64,000 nt of DNA from Clostridia bacterium (GTDB lineage Bacteria; Bacillota; Clostridia; Lutisporales; Lutisporaceae), in the NCBI GenBank assembly GCA_017994115.1, contig JAGOLK010000004.1, positions 213 to 64,212 on the forward strand, written 5' to 3'. Positions 23,169 through 31,489 of this stretch are shown in pieces. The position numbers and the translations under genes were made by a program. Position 1 is the stretch's first letter. Each line of letters opens with the position of its first letter. The notes under the pieces are model-generated. The model was not told where the DNA came from and did not search any database. It saw nothing but the letters and a program-made list of their open reading frames with translations.

Positions 23169-24470
23169 TTAAAGTTTTTCCATTAATTTCCGGCGGATAT
23201 CTTCAACAACATCCGCAGCTTTACTGCCATTATAAACTGTGAAATCACTGTACTCCTTGTACAAATCATACCTTTCGGCATGCATCTGCAGCAGCCGGTC
23301 TCTCCCTCCTGCCAGCAGCGGCCTCGTGCTTGTATCAATGTCATTCATAATATCAGATATATCCCTGTCAATAAATATAATAATTCCGTTTTTTTTCAGG
23401 CTTTTCATATTTACGGCTCTTTTTACCACACCGCCTCCGGTTGAAATTACTAAAGCCTTTTCCTTCTCCAGCGCAAGCACCGCCTTAGTTTCCAAATTGC
23501 GAAAGTGCTCTTCCCCCTGCCGGAACAGCTCATTAATAGTACATCCCTCTTGTTTTTCAATCAGATCATCGATATCTATGAACTTTCTCCCAAGCTTTTC
23601 TGCAAGCAGCTTTCCTATAGATGTCTTGCCGCAGCCCGACAGTCCTATCAATACTATATTCTTGCTTGTGTCGCTATAGAGCATTTTTTTTATATGCCGG
23701 TAAATACTATCCACCTGTTGACTTGAAAGTCCGATTCCATTCCAGATTTCCTGGGCTGCAACAGCCTGTCCCACAAGCATGTAAAGCCCGTTTACCGCTT
23801 TCAGCCCGTTTTCTTCAGCCTGCTTTAAAAACATTGTTCTTTCCGGATTATATATCAAATCTACCGCTGTACCAAACTGCTTAAATATTCCGTAAGGAAC
23901 CGGTGATACATCCATCTTGGGGTACATTCCGCAGGGAGTGCAATTTATTATAATGTCCCCCTTCAGGCTTTCTGTTTCATCATAGCCGACAGCCCCATCA
24001 CCGGGATTTCTGCTTACATATGTGATGCCTTTTACTCCATTATCCATGAGATACTGCGCTGCTGCCTTTGAAACCCCGCCGGTGCCCAGTATTACCGCAG
24101 TTTTATTTTTTACCTCTATACGGCTTCTTGCAAGCAGCATCCCAAAGCCGCTGTAATCGGTATTATACCCTGTGAGTATACCATTAACCAGTGAAATTGT
24201 ATTTACCGCACCGATTTTTTCAGCTTCTTCCGAAATCACATCAAGGTAAGGCATAATCTTTATTTTATATGGTACAGTGACATTCAAACCTTTGATGCCC
24301 TGCTCCTTGTACTTCAGGAGCGCAGGCTTCAGTTCCTCTTCCTTCAGCTCAAAAAGCCTGTATTCTCCTTCTATTCCCAGCATTTTGAATATTTCGCAGT
24401 GTATTTGCGGAGAAAAACTGTGTCTTAAGCTTTCTCCGATTAATCCGAAAACATTATTCATCATCCGCAT
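23169..24470 (-). CDS. aroE-aroK: Fused shikimate dehydrogenase / shikimate kinase
   Basis: The N-terminal part is AroE (FGLIGESLRHSFSP, GTGGVSKAA). The C-terminal part is AroK (IVLIGLSGCGKTSIGKLLAEKL, STGGGVV). I placed the start at MRMMNN, which overlaps the pheA stop; the ORF track starts at 24515. Confidence 0.8.
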   Translation of the reverse strand: MRMMNNVFGLIGESLRHSFSPQIHCEIFKMLGIEGEYRLFELKEEELKPALLKYKEQGIKGLNVTVPYKIKIMPYLDVISEEAEKIGAVNTISLVNGILTGYNTDYSGFGMLLARSRIEVKNKTAVILGTGGVSKAAAQYLMDNGVKGITYVSRNPGDGAVGYDETESLKGDIIINCTPCGMYPKMDVSPVPYGIFKQFGTAVDLIYNPERTMFLKQAEENGLKAVNGLYMLVGQAVAAQEIWNGIGLSSQQVDSIYRHIKKMLYSDTSKNIVLIGLSGCGKTSIGKLLAEKLGRKFIDIDDLIEKQEGCTINELFRQGEEHFRNLETKAVLALEKEKALVISTGGGVVKRAVNMKSLKKNGIIIFIDRDISDIMNDIDTSTRPLLAGGRDRLLQMHAERYDLYKEYSDFTVYNGSKAADVVEDIRRKLMEKL

Positions 24471-25603
24471 CCAACCTCGCTTACATAATTGCCCAGCAAT
24501 CTGAAATATGAACATTCCTTCTCCATATCCGCCAGAATGCCTCTTATACCTTCCTCATTTACGTTTCCGCTGAAATCTGTGTAAAAGAAATATTCCCATG
24601 CCTTATCTTCCAAAGGCCTGGATTCAATTTTCATCAAATTGCAATTACCCTCCGCAAAGTACCTTAGTATTCCATAAAGGCTTCCCGGCTTATGGGGCAC
24701 ACTGAATACTATGCTGATTTTATCAGCCTTTTCATTATCAAGCTTTCCTTTGCTTATAATTACAAATCTGGTGCTGTTGTTCCTGTGATCCTGTATACCC
24801 CGGCTGATTACACATAAGCCATATACTGATGCTGCCTTCACACCTGCAATACATGCTTTGGATTTCAAGCCTTCCTTCGCAATGTACTCTGCGCTTCCTG
24901 CGGTATCAAAATAGGGTATCTGCTTCCATTCTGGGTATTGTGAAAGATAACGGCTGCACTGAATCAAACCCTGCCGGTGACTGTAAACCTCCTTAATATC
25001 AGATAGCTTTGCACCTTCCACTGCAAGTAAGCTGTGCTCCACCCTCAGGCATTTTTCGCCTGCGATATAAAATTCATATTCTCTAAGTAAATCGTATACA
25101 TCATTAATACTGCCGGAGGTGGTATTTTCTATCGGCAGTATGCCATACTGTATTTCCCCTTTTGAAAGAGCTTCAAAAACATCCCTGAAGCTGTGATAGC
25201 TCAAGGCCTCGACCCCTTCCCCAAAATATTCAAGCCCCGCCTGATAGCTATAGCATCCCGGCACCCCTTGATAGCCTATTGCCATGTTCGTATTGAGGTT
25301 TTCTATCTTGGAAAGTTCCTGCTTTCTGCTTATTATATCTCCTTGAAGCCTCCTGCTCAAAAACATCAGGTTCTCCAAAAACTGCTCGATATACTTTATA
25401 TCAAAATCGACTCTGATTCCATTGACAAACCTGTCAATAATGTCTTTTTCCCTTGCCGGATCATATATCTTCATGTTTTTCCCTGATTTGTACTCCCCGA
25501 CCTTTTTGGCAAGTGCCATTCTTTCTATAAACAGCTTCACAAGCTTTTCATCAGTTTCATTTATCTTCTGTCTTAAGATTTCAAGTTCATCCAATACAAA
25601 CAC
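24461..25603 (-). CDS. pheA: Bifunctional chorismate mutase / prephenate dehydratase
   Basis: An N-terminal chorismate mutase helix bundle (LRQKINETDEKLVKLFIERM), a prephenate dehydratase domain with a TRF motif (NSTRFV), and a C-terminal ACT domain (ESRP). Confidence 0.85.
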   Translation of the reverse strand: MFVLDELEILRQKINETDEKLVKLFIERMALAKKVGEYKSGKNMKIYDPAREKDIIDRFVNGIRVDFDIKYIEQFLENLMFLSRRLQGDIISRKQELSKIENLNTNMAIGYQGVPGCYSYQAGLEYFGEGVEALSYHSFRDVFEALSKGEIQYGILPIENTTSGSINDVYDLLREYEFYIAGEKCLRVEHSLLAVEGAKLSDIKEVYSHRQGLIQCSRYLSQYPEWKQIPYFDTAGSAEYIAKEGLKSKACIAGVKAASVYGLCVISRGIQDHRNNSTRFVIISKGKLDNEKADKISIVFSVPHKPGSLYGILRYFAEGNCNLMKIESRPLEDKAWEYFFYTDFSGNVNEEGIRGILADMEKECSYFRLLGNYVSEVGCG

Positions 25604-25616
25604 ACCCTCTATTCAT

Positions 25617-26705
25617 TCATTTTCCCTGACTAACCATAATAAGATCTAAAAGTGCCATAGCAGTAACTGCCTCTATTACAGGCACTGCTCTCGGCACAAT
25701 GCACGGATCATGCCTTCCCTGTACTTCCAATTCAACGTTTTCTTTCTTCTCAATATCTATGGACCGCTGCCGCCTGCCAATTGAGGCCGCAGGCTTTATT
25801 GCGGTCCGAAATATTATCGGCATTCCGCCGGTTATGCCTCCAAGTATTCCCCCATTGTTGTTGCTGTGGGTTTTTACTTCCTCTCCATCCATATAATACT
25901 CATCATTTGCCTCGGAACCCATAAGCTTTGATATATCAAAACCCGCTCCGAATTCCAGGCCTTTTACTCCCGGAATGGAAAATATGAGATGAGCTAAAGT
26001 GCTTTCTACTGAATCAAAAAAAGGTTCTCCGATTCCCGGCTTCACGCCTAGTACTGCAGTTTCCACAACGCCGCCTACCGAGTCCTTTTGTTCCTTTGCC
26101 CGGGCAATAACCTCTTTCATAAGAGCTTCGCTTTTTGCATCCAATACGGGAAAAGCCTTGCCCGCCAATATTTTTAATGTGCCTGAGTCAACGATGACAG
26201 GGTTGAAAGGCCTGTCCTGCTCTTCTCCTATGCTCCTTATGTGACTGCCTATGGTAATTCCCCTGCTTTCAAGAAGCTGTTTGCATATAGCTCCTGCAAA
26301 AACCAGCGGGGCAGTGAGCCTTCCGGAAAAATGCCCTCCGCCTCTATAGTCATTGAAGCCGCCATGTTTCACATAAGCCGTGTAGTCACTGTGAGAAGGC
26401 CTCATTACATTTTTCAGCTCTGCATAATCTTCGGATTTTTTATCTGTGTTATATATCACTGCACATAAAGGTGCCCCTGTAGTTCTGCCCTCAAAAAAGC
26501 CGCTTAATATTTCAAATTCGTCCTCTTCCTTGCGCGGCGTGGAGAACTCATTATTCCCCGGAGCCCGCCTTTGCATTTCCTTTCTTATATAGTCAAGATC
26601 CAGAAGGATTCCGGCTTTCAAGCCGTCGATATTTATTCCTATTGCTTTACCGTGGGATTCTCCGAATATTGATATTTTCAAATTGTTACCCCATATACCG
26701 CTCAT
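25617..26705 (-). CDS. aroC: Chorismate synthase
   Basis: GESHG, RPSHSDYT, GRHDPC. Confidence 0.95.
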   Translation of the reverse strand: MSGIWGNNLKISIFGESHGKAIGINIDGLKAGILLDLDYIRKEMQRRAPGNNEFSTPRKEEDEFEILSGFFEGRTTGAPLCAVIYNTDKKSEDYAELKNVMRPSHSDYTAYVKHGGFNDYRGGGHFSGRLTAPLVFAGAICKQLLESRGITIGSHIRSIGEEQDRPFNPVIVDSGTLKILAGKAFPVLDAKSEALMKEVIARAKEQKDSVGGVVETAVLGVKPGIGEPFFDSVESTLAHLIFSIPGVKGLEFGAGFDISKLMGSEANDEYYMDGEEVKTHSNNNGGILGGITGGMPIIFRTAIKPAASIGRRQRSIDIEKKENVELEVQGRHDPCIVPRAVPVIEAVTAMALLDLIMVSQGK

Positions 26706-27963
26706 CGATTTTCCCCCCCAATGCTTTATAATCTACCCAGAAATCGGGATAAGACTTTTTCACACAAGAAGCATTGCTTATGATAACCGGCTCTTCGCAC
26801 CTTGTGGCTGCTATTGCCAGTGCCATTGCAATCCTATGGTCATTCCAGCTTTCAACTCTTCCGCCCCGAAGCCTTTTCCTGCCGTCAATAACCAGGCTGT
26901 CTTGCAATTCCGTAATACACGCTCCCAGTTTGCCAAGCTCGCTGCTTACAGCCTTCAGCCTGTCGGATTCCTTCAAACGCAGCCGGCCGGCATTTACTAT
27001 TTCAGTCCTTCCCTCACTCAGTGCCCCCAGTACTGCCAATATCGGGACCAAATCCGGACACTGGGAGGCGTCGATAACTGTTCCTCTTGTATCAGCCGGA
27101 AGCGCTTTGATAGCATCAGATTTTACAAATATTCCGCCTCCCATTTCGCCAATTATGTCCATCATTACTCTGTCACCCTGCATGGAATCCATATCAAGGC
27201 CCTTGCATACCACCTCCGACCCTAATACTCCCGCTGTCAGCCAGAAAGCAGCCTGGGAAAAATCTCCGGGAACGGTATAATCCGTCGCTCTGTACTTCTG
27301 CCTTCCTTTTATTATAAAAGTCCCGTAATCGTGGTTTTCTATATGTATTGAAAAGTCCTTCAGAACCTTCAGTGTCATATCTATGTAAGGCTTTGACTCC
27401 GGCTCGGTGGTTACCGTTATCCGTGAATCACCCTCTAAAAGCGGCAGCGCAAACATCAAGCCGCTAATGAACTGAGAGCTGATATTCCCTTCCAGTTGAA
27501 ACTCTCCGGGAACCAGCCTGCCATTAATGTGAAGAGGAAGCTTTCCGGCCTCGGTTTCGTATTTTATCCCCTGCTTCTCAAAAATATTATAGTAAGGCAC
27601 CAAGGGCCTTTCAACCAGTCTTCCTTCCCCGTAAAAAGTAACGGGTTCACCCGTCAAGGCTGCAATGGGTATAATAAACCTTAAGGTAGAACCTGATTCA
27701 TGACAGTTTATCCCGGTGTTTTTCAGCTTATGTACGGCGCTCCCCTTTATCCTCAGTGAGGCATCCTCTTTTTCAATCGTTATACCGAAGCTTCTCATCG
27801 CTTCCAAAGTCGCTTCAATATCCTGCGAAATCCCAACATTATTTATCGTACTAATTCCTTCCGAGAGTCCGGCGCATATCACCGCCCTATGGCTTATGCT
27901 TTTTGAAGCCGGTACGAAAACCTCACCGGCAAGGCTGCCGGGATATATTATCACTTCATTCAT
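26686..27963 (-). CDS. aroA: 3-phosphoshikimate 1-carboxyvinyltransferase (EPSP synthase)
   Basis: PASKSISHRA, LKESDR, NDHRIAMA. Confidence 0.95.
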   Translation of the reverse strand: MNEVIIYPGSLAGEVFVPASKSISHRAVICAGLSEGISTINNVGISQDIEATLEAMRSFGITIEKEDASLRIKGSAVHKLKNTGINCHESGSTLRFIIPIAALTGEPVTFYGEGRLVERPLVPYYNIFEKQGIKYETEAGKLPLHINGRLVPGEFQLEGNISSQFISGLMFALPLLEGDSRITVTTEPESKPYIDMTLKVLKDFSIHIENHDYGTFIIKGRQKYRATDYTVPGDFSQAAFWLTAGVLGSEVVCKGLDMDSMQGDRVMMDIIGEMGGGIFVKSDAIKALPADTRGTVIDASQCPDLVPILAVLGALSEGRTEIVNAGRLRLKESDRLKAVSSELGKLGACITELQDSLVIDGRKRLRGGRVESWNDHRIAMALAIAATRCEEPVIISNASCVKKSYPDFWVDYKALGGKIDERYMG

Positions 27964-29060
27964 TCACTTATCCCCCTTGCAGTTCCCGTTGTATCAAGAA
28001 AGCTTTCAAGTTCTTCGGACTTTGCTTTCGTGATAAAGGCAGTTCCCAGTTTATTTAACAGAACAAGCCTTATACTATCACCACTGAACTTTTTATCCCG
28101 CCTCATAACGTTTATCAGCTCTTTTTTATTTGCAACAGGGATTTCATAAGGCAATCCAAATTTCTTTAATATCTCCGTCAAAGCTTTTGCAGTACCGCGT
28201 TCTGTTAATCCCATCTCCTCGCTCCGTTTTGTAATTTCCGCCATACCCATTGCAACAGCTTCACCATGGGTGTACTTCTCATAATTATAATATTGTTCTA
28301 CTGCATGGCCAAAGGTATGACCGAAATTAAGAAGCATTCTTTCCCCTCTGTCCAGTTCATCCGCTTCCACTACTGCTCTTTTTATCGAACAGCAGGTGCA
28401 TACCAATTCATCCATATCGGCAATACATTGCTGCAGGTTTTCATAATCTGAAAGCCTGTCAAAGAGGCCCTTGTCCTTTATGCATCCGTATTTGATTACT
28501 TCAGCCATACCGTCTCTCAAATACCTGTCTTCCAGTGTATTCAGAAATAAAGTATCAATAAATACAATTTCAGGGTGATAAAAGCTTCCCACCAGGTTTT
28601 TCCCGAAGGGCAGGTCAATTGCAGTTTTACCGCCTACGCTGCTGTCCACTTGTGCCAGTAATGTTGTCGGGAGTTGAATATATGATATGCCCCTTAAATA
28701 GGTAGCTGCGGCAAACCCCGCCAAATCGCCTGCAACCCCGCCGCCAAACGCAATAATGATATCTCCCCTGTCTACGCTGAAGCCGGCAAGATCCTCATAT
28801 ATCCCCGAAAGGACTTGCAGGGATTTGCTTTTTTCACCCGGCTTAAAGGATATAAGCCTGCACTTCAGCCCTGCCTCAACTATACCTCTATACAATGATG
28901 CTCCGTAAAGCTTATTTACATTATCATCGGTAACTATTACAGCATTTTTGCCCCTATATCTCTCTGAAAGATATTTATAAAGCTCTTGCCGAATATTTTT
29001 GCCGATTTGGATATTATATTTTTTACTGCTGCTTTTTATTGAAACCTCTATAGCCATCAT
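27960..29060 (-). CDS. aroB: 3-dehydroquinate synthase
   Basis: GGGVAGDLAGFAAATYLRGI, GKNLVG, FGHTFGHA. Confidence 0.9.
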   Translation of the reverse strand: MMAIEVSIKSSSKKYNIQIGKNIRQELYKYLSERYRGKNAVIVTDDNVNKLYGASLYRGIVEAGLKCRLISFKPGEKSKSLQVLSGIYEDLAGFSVDRGDIIIAFGGGVAGDLAGFAAATYLRGISYIQLPTTLLAQVDSSVGGKTAIDLPFGKNLVGSFYHPEIVFIDTLFLNTLEDRYLRDGMAEVIKYGCIKDKGLFDRLSDYENLQQCIADMDELVCTCCSIKRAVVEADELDRGERMLLNFGHTFGHAVEQYYNYEKYTHGEAVAMGMAEITKRSEEMGLTERGTAKALTEILKKFGLPYEIPVANKKELINVMRRDKKFSGDSIRLVLLNKLGTAFITKAKSEELESFLDTTGTARGISE

Positions 29061-29936
29061 CTATATAATCTCCCTTTTACCTTTAATAGCATTGTCGAAC
29101 AGTATTTGAAGGCTGCTTTCATCCTGTGCTTTTATAGCATCTTTTAATTTATGAAGCATGTCCTCCATATCTTCTATTCTATCAATAATATTCAAATTAT
29201 TCATCCTGAGAATTTGAGTCCAAAGTTCCTTATTCAATGCCGCCACTCTGGTGGCATCCTTGAAGCTGCGCCCGGTAAAAGGGCTTATGCCCTTCTCCCT
29301 CATCATCAGGTTTGCAAATGAGATGGCAACTATATGCGGAAGCTGGCTTGTAAAGGATATCAAACGGTCATGAGCCTCTGCTCCTATCCTGGTCAAGCAC
29401 TTGCATCCTATTGAAGCTGCCAGCTTTTCCACAGCCATTATCCCGCTTTCGCTATTGCTTTCATGGGGTGTGATAATGTAGTTAGTATCAAAAAAGAGTT
29501 CCCGGGATGCGGCTTCAAAACCTTGAAACTCATTTCCTGCCATTGGATGTCCCCCGACAAACTCCACATCCGGCCGCAAGCTTTTCTTTGCAGCTTCAAT
29601 TACCGGCTGCTTGATACTGCAAGTATCGGTAACTATTGTTCCCGGCCTGAAATATTCGGCATAATTCTTAATAAATTCAATTGCTTCCTGTGGATACAGA
29701 GCAATTATTACCATATCGGATTTGCATAATATTTCTTCGGCATTGGAAGCACCCTCGTCTATTACTCCGCAGCCGGCTGCTTTGTTCAATACGCTCTCAT
29801 CAATATCTATGCCGTATATTCTTACGGCACTATGCTTTCTCAGTGCCATGGCAAAAGAACCGCCTATCAATCCCAAGCCAACTACTGCAATATTACTTCT
29901 AAAGTCACCCTCTTCCAATTTAATTCCTCCAATCAT
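29061..29936 (-). CDS. tyrA: Prephenate dehydrogenase
   Basis: A Rossmann fold (VVGLGLIGGS) and GGHPMAG. Confidence 0.85.
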   Translation of the reverse strand: MIGGIKLEEGDFRSNIAVVGLGLIGGSFAMALRKHSAVRIYGIDIDESVLNKAAGCGVIDEGASNAEEILCKSDMVIIALYPQEAIEFIKNYAEYFRPGTIVTDTCSIKQPVIEAAKKSLRPDVEFVGGHPMAGNEFQGFEAASRELFFDTNYIITPHESNSESGIMAVEKLAASIGCKCLTRIGAEAHDRLISFTSQLPHIVAISFANLMMREKGISPFTGRSFKDATRVAALNKELWTQILRMNNLNIIDRIEDMEDMLHKLKDAIKAQDESSLQILFDNAIKGKREII

Positions 29937-29986: not shown

Positions 29987-31000
29987 TTAATTAGTCTTTT
30001 TCAGCGAGTCTGCCATTAATGTTATATCTTTCATCATTGCCCTGAACCTTTCCGGCTTAATGGATTGCTGCCCGTCACACTTGGCATTTGCAGGATCACT
30101 GTGCACTTCTACCATAATTCCGTCAGCCCCCGCAACAACCGCTGCTTTTGCAAGAGGTTCAACCATCCACCACAAACCTGTCGCATGGCTTGGATCAACT
30201 ATTACAGGCAAATGGCTGAGTTTCTTGATTGCCAGAATGGCACTAATGTCCAAAGTATTTCTTGTATAGGTCTCAAAGGTCCTTATGCCTCTTTCACAAA
30301 GTATTACATTGCTGTTCCCCTCAGACATGATATATTCTGCTGACATTAGCAGCTCTTCTATTGTTGCAGACAGTCCGCGCTTCAAAAGTATGGGCTTTGC
30401 TGTCTTTCCAAGCTCCTTAAGAAGCTCAAAGTTCTGCATGTTTCTTGCGCCAACCTGTATTACGTCCACATCTTCTACGAATCTCTCTATCATATCTACT
30501 GACATTATTTCCGTGACAATCGGAAGGCCGGTCTCCTTCTTTGCAAGTTTCAAAAGCTCAAGTCCCTCTAGCTTCATACCCTGGAAGCTGTACGGTGATG
30601 TCCTGGGCTTGAATGCGCCTCCTCTTAAGAAGCCCGCCCCGCACTCCTTCACGTCCTTCGCCAATTCCAATATCTGCTCTTCGCTTTCCACCGAGCAAGG
30701 TCCTGCTATTACAGCCAGCTCTTGTCCGCCTATGGTCTTGTCGCCTACCTGTATCACCGAGTTGTCCTTATGAAACATTCTGTTTGAAAGCTTGTATCTC
30801 TGTTGAATCTTCATGACCGCTTCCACGCTTTCATTTGCTTCGATTTCACTTATGTCTATACCGGTAGTATCTCCGATAATTCCAAGTACACAATAATCCC
30901 TGCCCTTTATTACACTTACCTTGAGATCTCCCGTTTCTATCCTTTCTCTAAGTTTTTCGATTTCTTCATCTGAGGCATTTTCTCTCATTACTATCACCAT
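29987..31000 (-). CDS. aroF: 3-deoxy-7-phosphoheptulonate (DAHP) synthase, type I-beta, with an N-terminal ferredoxin-like regulatory domain
   Basis: GPCSVES, KPRTSPYSFQG, DPSHATG. An N-terminal extension of about 70 aa resembles the Thermotoga-type regulatory domain. Confidence 0.9.
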   Translation of the reverse strand: MVIVMRENASDEEIEKLRERIETGDLKVSVIKGRDYCVLGIIGDTTGIDISEIEANESVEAVMKIQQRYKLSNRMFHKDNSVIQVGDKTIGGQELAVIAGPCSVESEEQILELAKDVKECGAGFLRGGAFKPRTSPYSFQGMKLEGLELLKLAKKETGLPIVTEIMSVDMIERFVEDVDVIQVGARNMQNFELLKELGKTAKPILLKRGLSATIEELLMSAEYIMSEGNSNVILCERGIRTFETYTRNTLDISAILAIKKLSHLPVIVDPSHATGLWWMVEPLAKAAVVAGADGIMVEVHSDPANAKCDGQQSIKPERFRAMMKDITLMADSLKKTN

Positions 31001-31020
31001 ATTTACCCTCCTTTATTTTT

Positions 31021-31052
31021 ATAAAAAAATAAGGCTCTAATGAGCCTTATTT
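31021..31052 (-). terminator. Intrinsic terminator / attenuator immediately upstream of the aroF RBS
   Basis: On the minus strand, AAAUAAGGCUC AUUA GAGCCUUAUUU is followed by a U-run. The aroF RBS (AAAGGAGGG) follows within about 15 nt, leaving no room for a separate promoter. Confidence 0.65.
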
Positions 31053-31086
31053 GAATCGATGCTATTTCATATGAATAAAGGTTTAC

Positions 31087-31233
31087 TTACAATAATTGTT
31101 TAAATTCTTCCAACTCATTAGGAAAAGGAATATATTCTTTTTTGCATGCATAATAACCGGCGCTAAAGTAATAGCCCAGGTTATAGCTAAAGTAATATAT
31201 TCCGCTTATTCCCTTCCCTAATAAATTGTTCAT
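31087..31233 (-). CDS. Candidate Tyr/Phe-rich leader peptide of the aro operon (48 aa; alternative in-frame starts at 31248 and 31254)
   Basis: My own translation is MNNLLGKGISGIYYFSYNLGYYFSAGYYACKKEYIPFPNELEEFKQLL. It has 8 Tyr and 4 Phe. A GGAG lies 9 nt upstream of this ATG. The ORF sits between a consensus promoter and the terminator. Confidence 0.4.
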   Translation of the reverse strand: MNNLLGKGISGIYYFSYNLGYYFSAGYYACKKEYIPFPNELEEFKQLL

Positions 31234-31282
31234 TGCATAAATCTCCATACTCATATGATTTGAACCAAATGTATTTCTGTTG

Positions 31283-31310
31283 ATTATAACATATGCGCCA
31301 AATATGTCAA
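31283..31310 (-). promoter_or_regulatory. Near-consensus sigma-A promoter of the aro operon leader
   Basis: On the minus strand: TTGACA, a 16 nt spacer, then TGT TATAAT (extended -10). Confidence 0.65.
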
Positions 31311-31363
31311 CTGTTATTTTCTTATTCAGAGTTTACATAAATACGATTTCCGCAAAACATAAT

Positions 31364-31447
31364 CTATTGAAATAATGGAGCAATAATTGTCAGCAGAAAG
31401 GCTATGATAACTAATATACTGATTACCGCAACCACTTTCCTTTTCAC
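31364..31447 (-). CDS. Possible 27 aa hydrophobic micropeptide
   Basis: GTG start after GGGGGTGG. Translation is (M)KRKVVAVISILVIIAFLLTIIAPLFQ. There is no other support. Confidence 0.2.
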   Translation of the reverse strand: MKRKVVAVISILVIIAFLLTIIAPLFQ

Positions 31448-31489
31448 AAAACCACCCCCGCAATTCATAAACTCCGTTCCGCCATTATG

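Follow-up and report, generated by a model that had tools for sequence, protein, structure and literature searches.

A probable leader-peptide attenuator reading Tyr and Phe codons upstream of a clostridial aroF operon

The aroF operon and its leader

A 64-kb stretch of DNA from a Clostridia bacterium of the family Lutisporaceae (64,000 nucleotides (nt) of contig JAGOLK010000004.1, referred to here as the window) carries an operon for aromatic amino acid biosynthesis whose genes, identified through Pfam, stand in the order aroF, tyrA, aroB, aroA, aroC, pheA and an aroE-aroK fusion. The first gene codes for a DAHP synthase with an N-terminal ferredoxin-like domain, while the pheA product is a chorismate mutase fused to a prephenate dehydratase. 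Upstream of aroF lies a 276-nt leader with a short open reading frame (ORF) rich in Tyr and Phe codons, several complementary segments and an intrinsic terminator. Judged from its sequence and from that of its relatives, this leader is most probably a ribosome-mediated (leader-peptide) transcription attenuator that would sense charged tRNA-Tyr and tRNA-Phe and control the transcription of aroF-tyrA-aroB-aroA-aroC-pheA-aroEK. All coordinates given for the leader and the operon refer to the minus strand of the window (Table 1).

An earlier note on this DNA had claimed that a Tyr/Phe leader-peptide attenuator governs the operon, and not a T-box, TRAP or a protein regulator. The promoter, the Shine-Dalgarno sequence, the 48-codon ORF with its 8 Tyr and 4 Phe codons, a 12-nt repeat, the terminator and the operon all lie where that note had placed them, and its central claim is upheld by the conservation of the ORF, by mutually exclusive RNA structures and by the lack of a match to a known RNA model.

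The promoter consists of TTGACA (31310-31305), a 16-nt spacer, a TG dinucleotide (31291-31290) and TATAAT (31288-31283). With its extended -10 element it scores 12/12 and is the top-scoring site of the region, and the same promoter has been kept in the relatives L083-L085, L087, L088 and L090. The Shine-Dalgarno sequence GGAG that precedes the leader ORF stands at the same distance from the start codon in most relatives (alignments A1 and A2). Two further in-frame ATG codons are found upstream of the ORF (at 31254 and 31248), and the frame that they open is not consistently kept in the relatives.

Table 1. Features of the aroF leader and operon, listed in the direction of transcription
Feature	Position in the window	Strand	Basis
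Sigma-70-type promoter, TTGACA / 16 nt / TGnTATAAT	31283..31310	-	promoter scoring
Shine-Dalgarno sequence GGAG of the leader ORF, 9 nt before ATG 31233	31243..31246	-	sequence
Leader ORF, 48 codons plus stop, 8 Tyr and 4 Phe	31087..31233	-	sequence, translation
Segment 1, codons 2-9, CAAUUUAUUAGGGAAGGGAAUA, 5' strand of the anti-antiterminator helix	31207..31228	-	inverted repeat I1
Regulatory codon cluster, codons 13-28, YYFSYNLGYYFSAGYY	31150..31197	-	sequence, translation
Inner hairpin, AACCUGGGCUA with UAGCGCCGGUU	31155..31182	-	inverted repeat I6, -10.2 kcal/mol
Segment 2, UAUUCCUUUUCCUAAUGAGUUG	31111..31132	-	inverted repeats I1 and I11
Segment 3 core, GGCUCAUUAG, terminator 5' arm and loop, partner of AAUGAGUU	31037..31046	-	conservation, pairing
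Intrinsic terminator, 11-bp stem, AUUA loop, U-tract	31020..31052	-	terminator prediction, -13.8 kcal/mol
aroF ribosome-binding site GGAGG (31011-31007) and aroF (ATG 31000)	29987..31011	-	sequence, Pfam
tyrA, aroB, aroA, aroC, pheA, aroE-aroK	23169..29936	-	Pfam assignments and ORF layout

Aromatic-rich reading frames before aroF in Clostridia

The leader ORF (31233-31087) encodes MNNLLGKGISGIYYFSYNLGYYFSAGYYACKKEYIPFPNELEEFKQLL, a peptide in which 12 of the 48 codons specify Tyr or Phe; the regulatory cluster is denser still, with 9 aromatic codons among its 16. The 12-nt direct repeat TATTACTTTAGC is present twice (repeat family D3). A six-frame scan of the window revealed that chance ORFs reach 8 aromatic residues within 16, as compared with 9 in the leader ORF, and the significance of the cluster was therefore drawn from comparative data. 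The scan also bears on a second small aromatic ORF at positions 5100-5279, which was dismissed because it lies out of frame within a gene of 804 amino acids. When the leader peptides were searched against Pfam and NCBIfam, no family was found.

For the comparison, a first set of 78 aroF upstream regions from representative genomes was assembled, which grew to 149 loci with the addition of metagenome loci; an ATG-started short ORF with at least seven Tyr, Phe or Trp residues within 16 was taken as aromatic-rich. Such an ORF is present in 49 of the 78 regions of the first set and on the reverse strand of none of them (0/78), and 0.45% of shuffled sequences reach at least 8 aromatic residues in 16. 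Across the enlarged collection, 84 of the 149 Clostridia aroF upstream regions carry an aromatic-rich short ORF, the commonest arrangement before aroF in the Clostridia sampled. A hairpin followed by a T-run stands between the ORF and aroF in nearly all cases (51 of 53 such ORFs, first set). The T-box motif is absent from the 84 loci with an aromatic ORF and occurs at 10 others, so that the two are never found at one locus; 55 of the 149 have neither, some of them with weaker aromatic ORFs. The leader is also present in C. botulinum, C. perfringens, C. butyricum and C. tyrobutyricum, and a peptide search returned five clusters of homologues (P0001-P0005; 69-100% identity), all of them encoded immediately upstream of a DAHP synthase gene. 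The upstream ORF of locus L012 is atypical in appearance.

Fifteen close relatives, including C. magnum, C. thailandense and C. tyrobutyricum, were examined in detail. None of the 15 has lost the open frame, which spans 43-57 codons with 11-19 aromatic residues, and the other two frames hold between 2 and 9 stops. The orthologous leaders keep the ORF, its reading frame and the aromatic run, as the attenuator proposed in the earlier note would have it, and the changes that they have accepted are exchanges between Tyr and Phe codons and synonymous alternations of TAT with TAC and of TTT with TTC. Every insertion or deletion observed in the codon cluster has a length divisible by three. In many relatives (L002-L005, L007, L088) a Trp codon, UGG, stands in a fixed place just ahead of the inner hairpin's Gly codon; where these relatives carry UGG, the clade of the window has CUG (Leu; 31179-31177). 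This replacement suggests that the sensing of Trp may have been lost in the lineage of the window.

These data decide on the proposal that the ORF is a chance product of AT-rich sequence next to a promoter and a terminator of the ordinary kind and plays no part in regulation. The eight aromatic residues in 16 reached by chance ORFs of the window, against nine in the leader, speak for it, as does the ease with which AU-rich sequence gives weak pairings. Its counter-evidence is the conservation of the ORF in 15 close and dozens of distant aroF leaders, the count of 0/78 on the opposite strand, and the covariation of three helices of the leader. The comparative data appear to have effectively refuted this explanation already, and we give it practically no credence.

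Competing helices in the leader RNA

The leader folds far better than its shuffled counterparts (-73.1 kcal/mol, z = -5.7, 0/200 shuffles). Part of its minimum-energy fold is a 22-bp helix in which segment 1 pairs with segment 2 (31228-31207 with 31132-31111; duplex -26.8 kcal/mol). In 15 sequences this helix is 85% paired, with compensatory changes that include double replacements in L088, for example from U-A to C-G and from A-U to G-C. The stem of the terminator is formed by 31052-31042 and 31037-31027, which enclose a 4-nt loop and are followed by a U-tract that extends to ~31021; its pairing in the 15-sequence alignment reaches 93%, and 5 pairs are compensatory. Taken together, the termination conformation is 87.7% paired in the same alignment and has 9 compensatory pairs, and 0/500 shuffles match the observed pairing, the count of compensatory pairs or the covariation score. 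A 10-bp pairing highlighted in the earlier note, GGAAUAUAUU:AAUAUAUUCC, proved to be real; it is part of the inverted repeat I3 and extends the helix between segments 1 and 2 in several relatives.

Segment 2 has an alternative to its pairing with segment 1, as AAUGAGUU (31119-31112) can pair with the 5' arm and loop of the terminator, GGCUCAUU (31046-31039). This antiterminator helix is conserved: 96% of its cells are paired across the 15 sequences, and the duplex has an energy of -12.4 kcal/mol. It takes the place of the antiterminator that had been proposed previously, CCUUUAUU:AAUAAGG, which did not hold up (-2.9 kcal/mol, 68% paired, in a poorly alignable region). The longest invariant runs of the leader alignment are ATGAGT, which lies in the ORF, and CTCATT, which covers the inner part of the terminator 5' arm and the loop, and these runs hold the reverse-complementary pair ATGAG/CTCAT. 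CTCATT is invariant including its loop bases, whereas the outer terminator stem varies with compensation; such invariance of the loop-proximal CUCAUU is not usually seen in the loop of a terminator and suggests that the segment has another pairing partner. Furthermore, the frame over AAUGAG is shifted in C. tyrobutyricum, C. botulinum and C. butyricum (L004, L167, L169), where it is read as Leu-Met-Ser rather than Asn-Glu. Hence, AAUGAG is conserved as RNA and not as peptide.

When the leaders were folded freely, the helix between segments 1 and 2 and the terminator formed in 16 of 18. With the 5' part masked, which mimics a stalled ribosome, and the RNA cut before the 3' arm of the terminator, AAUGAG:CUCAUU formed in 16 of 18. 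More distant leaders from Lachnospiraceae, Oscillospiraceae and other groups mostly follow the same fold logic with unrelated sequences. The sequence elements, their conservation and covariation, and the predicted switch between the folds are direct observations, and mutually exclusive structures of the kind expected from the earlier note do exist and are conserved. Another pairing of the same region, I2, connects 31010-31026 with 31065-31081 (17 nt, 82% complementary), that is, the U-tract and the aroF ribosome-binding site with the region that follows the stop codon of the ORF; it is not conserved in L090 or in other relatives.

Within the codon cluster, a third helix is formed by the inner hairpin, whose arms are 31182-31172 and 31165-31155. 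Its loop carries Tyr-Tyr-Phe codons, and its 3' arm is made up of the Ser-Ala-Gly codons. In 23 leaders from several families (alignment A3: Clostridiaceae, Lachnospiraceae, Oscillospiraceae) it is 82% paired, 4 of its 9 pairs change on both sides, and 0/500 shuffles reach its covariation score; 21 of the 23 sequences retain a G-G mismatch at its centre. At their synonymous third positions, the Ala and Gly codons covary with the bases that they pair with in the hairpin, and the recurring motif G-Y-Y-F-S-A-G is thereby explained without recourse to a function of the peptide. The hairpin could serve as a binding site or in pausing; our guess would be a pause or synchronising hairpin for RNA polymerase.

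The hairpin matters for a different view of the ORF, namely that it encodes a functional small, hydrophobic and aromatic-rich protein, with the terminator marking the end of that small gene. In several assemblies (including that of L168), gene callers have annotated the ORF as protein-coding, and the motif G-Y-Y-F-S-A-G-Y-F-x-C-K can be recognised across lineages. However, the length of the peptide, its C-terminus and even the frame over AAUGAG vary, the conserved S-A-G codons are accounted for by the covarying RNA hairpin, neither Pfam nor NCBIfam holds a corresponding family, and the ORF always stands directly before aroF, with the end products of the operon as its enriched residues. We regard a functional small protein as very unlikely.

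Known RNA regulators of aromatic amino acid genes were sought in the leader as well. A search of Rfam 15 (4227 families, including any leader-peptide models of the Phe, Trp, His, Leu, Thr or leu/phe type) returned no match at the gathering threshold anywhere in the window, its leader included, and seven relatives of the leader were likewise without a match; the candidates obtained at E<=10 were terminator look-alikes only (SpF36, gltS), far below their gathering scores. The T-box model RF00230 gave no match to the window leader at the gathering threshold or at E<=10, nor does this leader contain the T-box core motif, in agreement with the earlier note. The same search detects T-boxes (95-115 bits) upstream of aroF in L013, L018, L021 and L047, which serve as a positive control for the T-box-negative leader of the window. 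The TRAP target of the Bacillus subtilis trp operon consists of 9-11 GAG/UAG triplets spaced by 2-3 nt; no run of at least five such triplets is found in the 276-nt leader.

The leader might instead be a riboswitch or another RNA that binds a ligand, a tRNA or a protein, with the helix between segments 1 and 2 and the inner hairpin as its sensor and with the ORF incidental or secondary. Such an RNA would fit the unusually stable fold of the leader (z = -5.7), the covariation of the inner hairpin across families with its G-G mismatch in 21/23 sequences, and the fact that much of the 5' and 3' parts of the ORF is conserved as nucleotides and not as peptide; a 'riboswitch' candidate that was left untyped has moreover been described upstream of aroFBC-tyrA in Enterococcus faecium (PMC4448216). 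It does not fit the distant leaders, which share little but a Shine-Dalgarno sequence, a start codon and an open frame dense in Tyr, Phe and Trp codons, followed by a terminator. The aromatic enrichment is specific to strand and frame, insertions and deletions in the codon cluster preserve the frame, and the window leader has no Rfam family, T-box motif or TRAP-like triplet array. Hence, we consider a purely structural sensor of this type improbable. Equally doubtful, in our estimation, is a second input that would be added to the attenuator by the inner hairpin or by the recurring peptide motif G-Y-Y-F-S-A-G-[YF]-F-x-C-K, so that the attenuator would combine signals from free amino acid and from charged tRNA. 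This input could take the form of a TnaC-like stall, assisted by the nascent peptide or a ligand, that senses free aromatic amino acids, or of an RNA element that binds a small molecule or a protein.

The region between the leader and aroF differs among the relatives. The earlier note had pointed out that the U-tract of the terminator runs directly into the ribosome-binding site of aroF; this is correct for the window and not a general trait, since apart from this lineage the compact layout is found in L090 only, and the other relatives have ~70-150 nt in between. In L001, the closest relative (AroF 98% identical), an insertion of ~150 nt separates the leader terminator from the aroF ribosome-binding site (L001:2815-2985). 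It is GC-rich, filled with palindromes, contains a second terminator-like hairpin and is absent from the window; it could be a small mobile or repeat element. In L090 (L090:689-1498, 86% identical), the match to AroF begins at residue 62 of the query, and the ATG that follows the leader terminator begins a different N-terminal sequence. As judged from this sequence, the ferredoxin-like regulatory domain may be missing from the L090 AroF protein or replaced. On the other side of the leader, between obg and the aroF promoter, a small hydrophobic ORF that ends in VKRKVVAVISILVIIAFLLTIIAPLFQ is located at 31326-31463 (minus strand), and its 3' end is also found upstream of the promoter in L090.

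The proposed mechanism and its relation to known systems

In the attenuation mechanism that we envision, transcription would start ~7 nt past the -10 box, and a ribosome would initiate at the AUG codon at 31233. With Tyr and Phe in plentiful supply, the ribosome would cross codons 13-28 and then segment 2, which would subsequently either lie beneath the ribosome or return to the 22-bp helix with segment 1. With segment 2 unavailable, the terminator hairpin (31052-31027) would form, and transcription would end before aroF. When charged tRNA-Tyr or charged tRNA-Phe is scarce, the ribosome would stall among the clustered Tyr and Phe codons, just 3' of segment 1, where it would occlude or sterically block segment 1 and melt the inner hairpin, leaving segment 2 free; as the 5' arm and the loop of the terminator emerge from RNA polymerase, AAUGAGUU would pair with GGCUCAUU, the terminator would be blocked, and the operon would be transcribed. 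If the ORF is not translated, segments 1 and 2 would pair, and termination would be the default outcome. That the ORF is translated, that ribosomes stall on it, and that kinetic competition and its timing settle the outcome are steps that we infer, as would be any statement on which of the two amino acids dominates the response.

Several observations weigh against this mechanism. The window by itself is not convincing, as its aromatic enrichment is little above chance. The regulatory codons sit between segments 1 and 2 and not within segment 1; the footprint of a ribosome stalled at Y13-F15 reaches segment 1, and that a ribosome at the later Tyr codons would occlude segment 1 depends on a steric argument. 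Segment 2 itself includes two aromatic codons, Y34 and F37, and a ribosome stalled at these would promote termination. In the fold-switch test, the leaders of C. botulinum and C. butyricum showed no switch. The core of the antiterminator is invariant and hence without covariation of its own, so that its support consists of conservation and complementarity. Finally, the terminator (-13.8 kcal/mol) has a small advantage in stability over the antiterminator duplex (-12.4 kcal/mol), and a masked fold in which the 3' arm is present still favours the terminator. Since the terminator is at least as stable as its competitor, anti-termination must be kinetic.

Aromatic amino acid genes in the Firmicutes are usually summarised as being controlled by T-boxes, TRAP or protein repressors. 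A T-box would occupy the same position as the aroF leader and produce the same output, read-through of a terminator when charged tRNA is low. It differs in that it senses uncharged tRNA directly through RNA-RNA contacts and needs no translation, and the leader of the window is without a specifier or T-box sequence. The earlier note had called ribosome-mediated attenuation unusual for Firmicutes; this is partly right and overstated, because leader-peptide attenuators have been shown or predicted in Staphylococcus aureus, Bacillus, Peptostreptococcaceae, Erysipelotrichales and Acholeplasma. The ilv-leu operon of S. aureus is under the control of a Leu-rich leader-peptide attenuator (PMC5794164), and His leaders have been predicted in the Bacillus cereus group, Peptostreptococcaceae and Erysipelotrichales (PMC9413887). 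These ilv-leu and his systems are likewise ribosome-mediated and belong to low-GC Gram-positive bacteria, but they respond to other amino acids and control other operons, none of them for aromatic biosynthesis in Clostridia.

With the pheL-pheA and trpL-trp systems of Escherichia coli, the aroF leader has in common the logic of four segments, the use of codons for the end products, and termination by default without translation. It bears no sequence or Rfam relationship to them. While the regulatory codons of the E. coli leaders lie within segment 1, those of the window are placed in the loop that segments 1 and 2 close off. Furthermore, the window leader reads two amino acids (three in the relatives with the UGG codon), and a single leader controls the whole common pathway together with tyrA and pheA.

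Closer in its genetic context is the aroR leader peptide of Corynebacterium glutamicum, a peptide with a Phe-Tyr-Phe triplet encoded upstream of aroF (Neshat et al. 2014, as summarised in PMC11802643). Stalling in aroR raises the transcription of the operon, which responds to limitation for Phe and not for Tyr (PMC11802643). Both systems place a leader peptide with Phe and Tyr codons directly before the DAHP synthase gene aroF. Likened here by description, they differ in that aroR belongs to the Actinobacteria and is described with a Phe-Tyr-Phe triplet only, compared with a cluster of 16 codons with 9 aromatic ones in the window, and in that the codon cluster of the window leader holds an additional conserved hairpin. 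Brewer et al. (2021, PMC8632094) reported a computational candidate for an upstream ORF (uORF), uORFC-13-1, which is found exclusively upstream of aroF. It stems from Acholeplasma and unassigned environmental sequences, has 24 representatives, and codes for 'at least one' Phe (PMC8632094). By description alone, it resembles the leader studied here in its promoter, ribosome-binding site, start codon, Phe-coding U-run, extra paired element and adjacent intrinsic terminator.

Our literature search found no description of a clostridial aroF leader peptide, although subscription journals were thinly covered and this absence is no proof; the clostridial aroF leader family appears to be undescribed. 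Because the mechanism itself is textbook knowledge, the finding is incremental and not conceptually new: it is a widespread further case of a known kind of regulator. Two reports deserve attention in this context. An unexplained premature termination event has been noted in the 5' untranslated region (UTR) of aroF in C. difficile 630 (PMC8237595), and a 'gbs2033-type riboswitch candidate' has been reported upstream of aroFBC-tyrA in E. faecium (PMC4448216). Either signal might represent a leader-peptide attenuator of a similar type. The AroF protein of C. difficile did not appear within the 120 best homologues of the Peptoclostridium AroF.

If confirmed, and if a similar uORF is present, the aroF leader would offer a candidate explanation for orphan premature termination events such as that in the aroF 5' UTR of C. 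difficile. Confirmation would also provide an amino-acid-responsive expression switch for the metabolic engineering of aromatic products in Clostridia. For genome annotation, it would mean a widespread regulatory family that is so far unannotated, with nothing in Rfam 15, Pfam or NCBIfam. A Tyr/Phe(/Trp) leader ORF precedes 84 of the 149 aroF genes sampled, which contrasts with the usual summary of how the Firmicutes control their aromatic amino acid genes.

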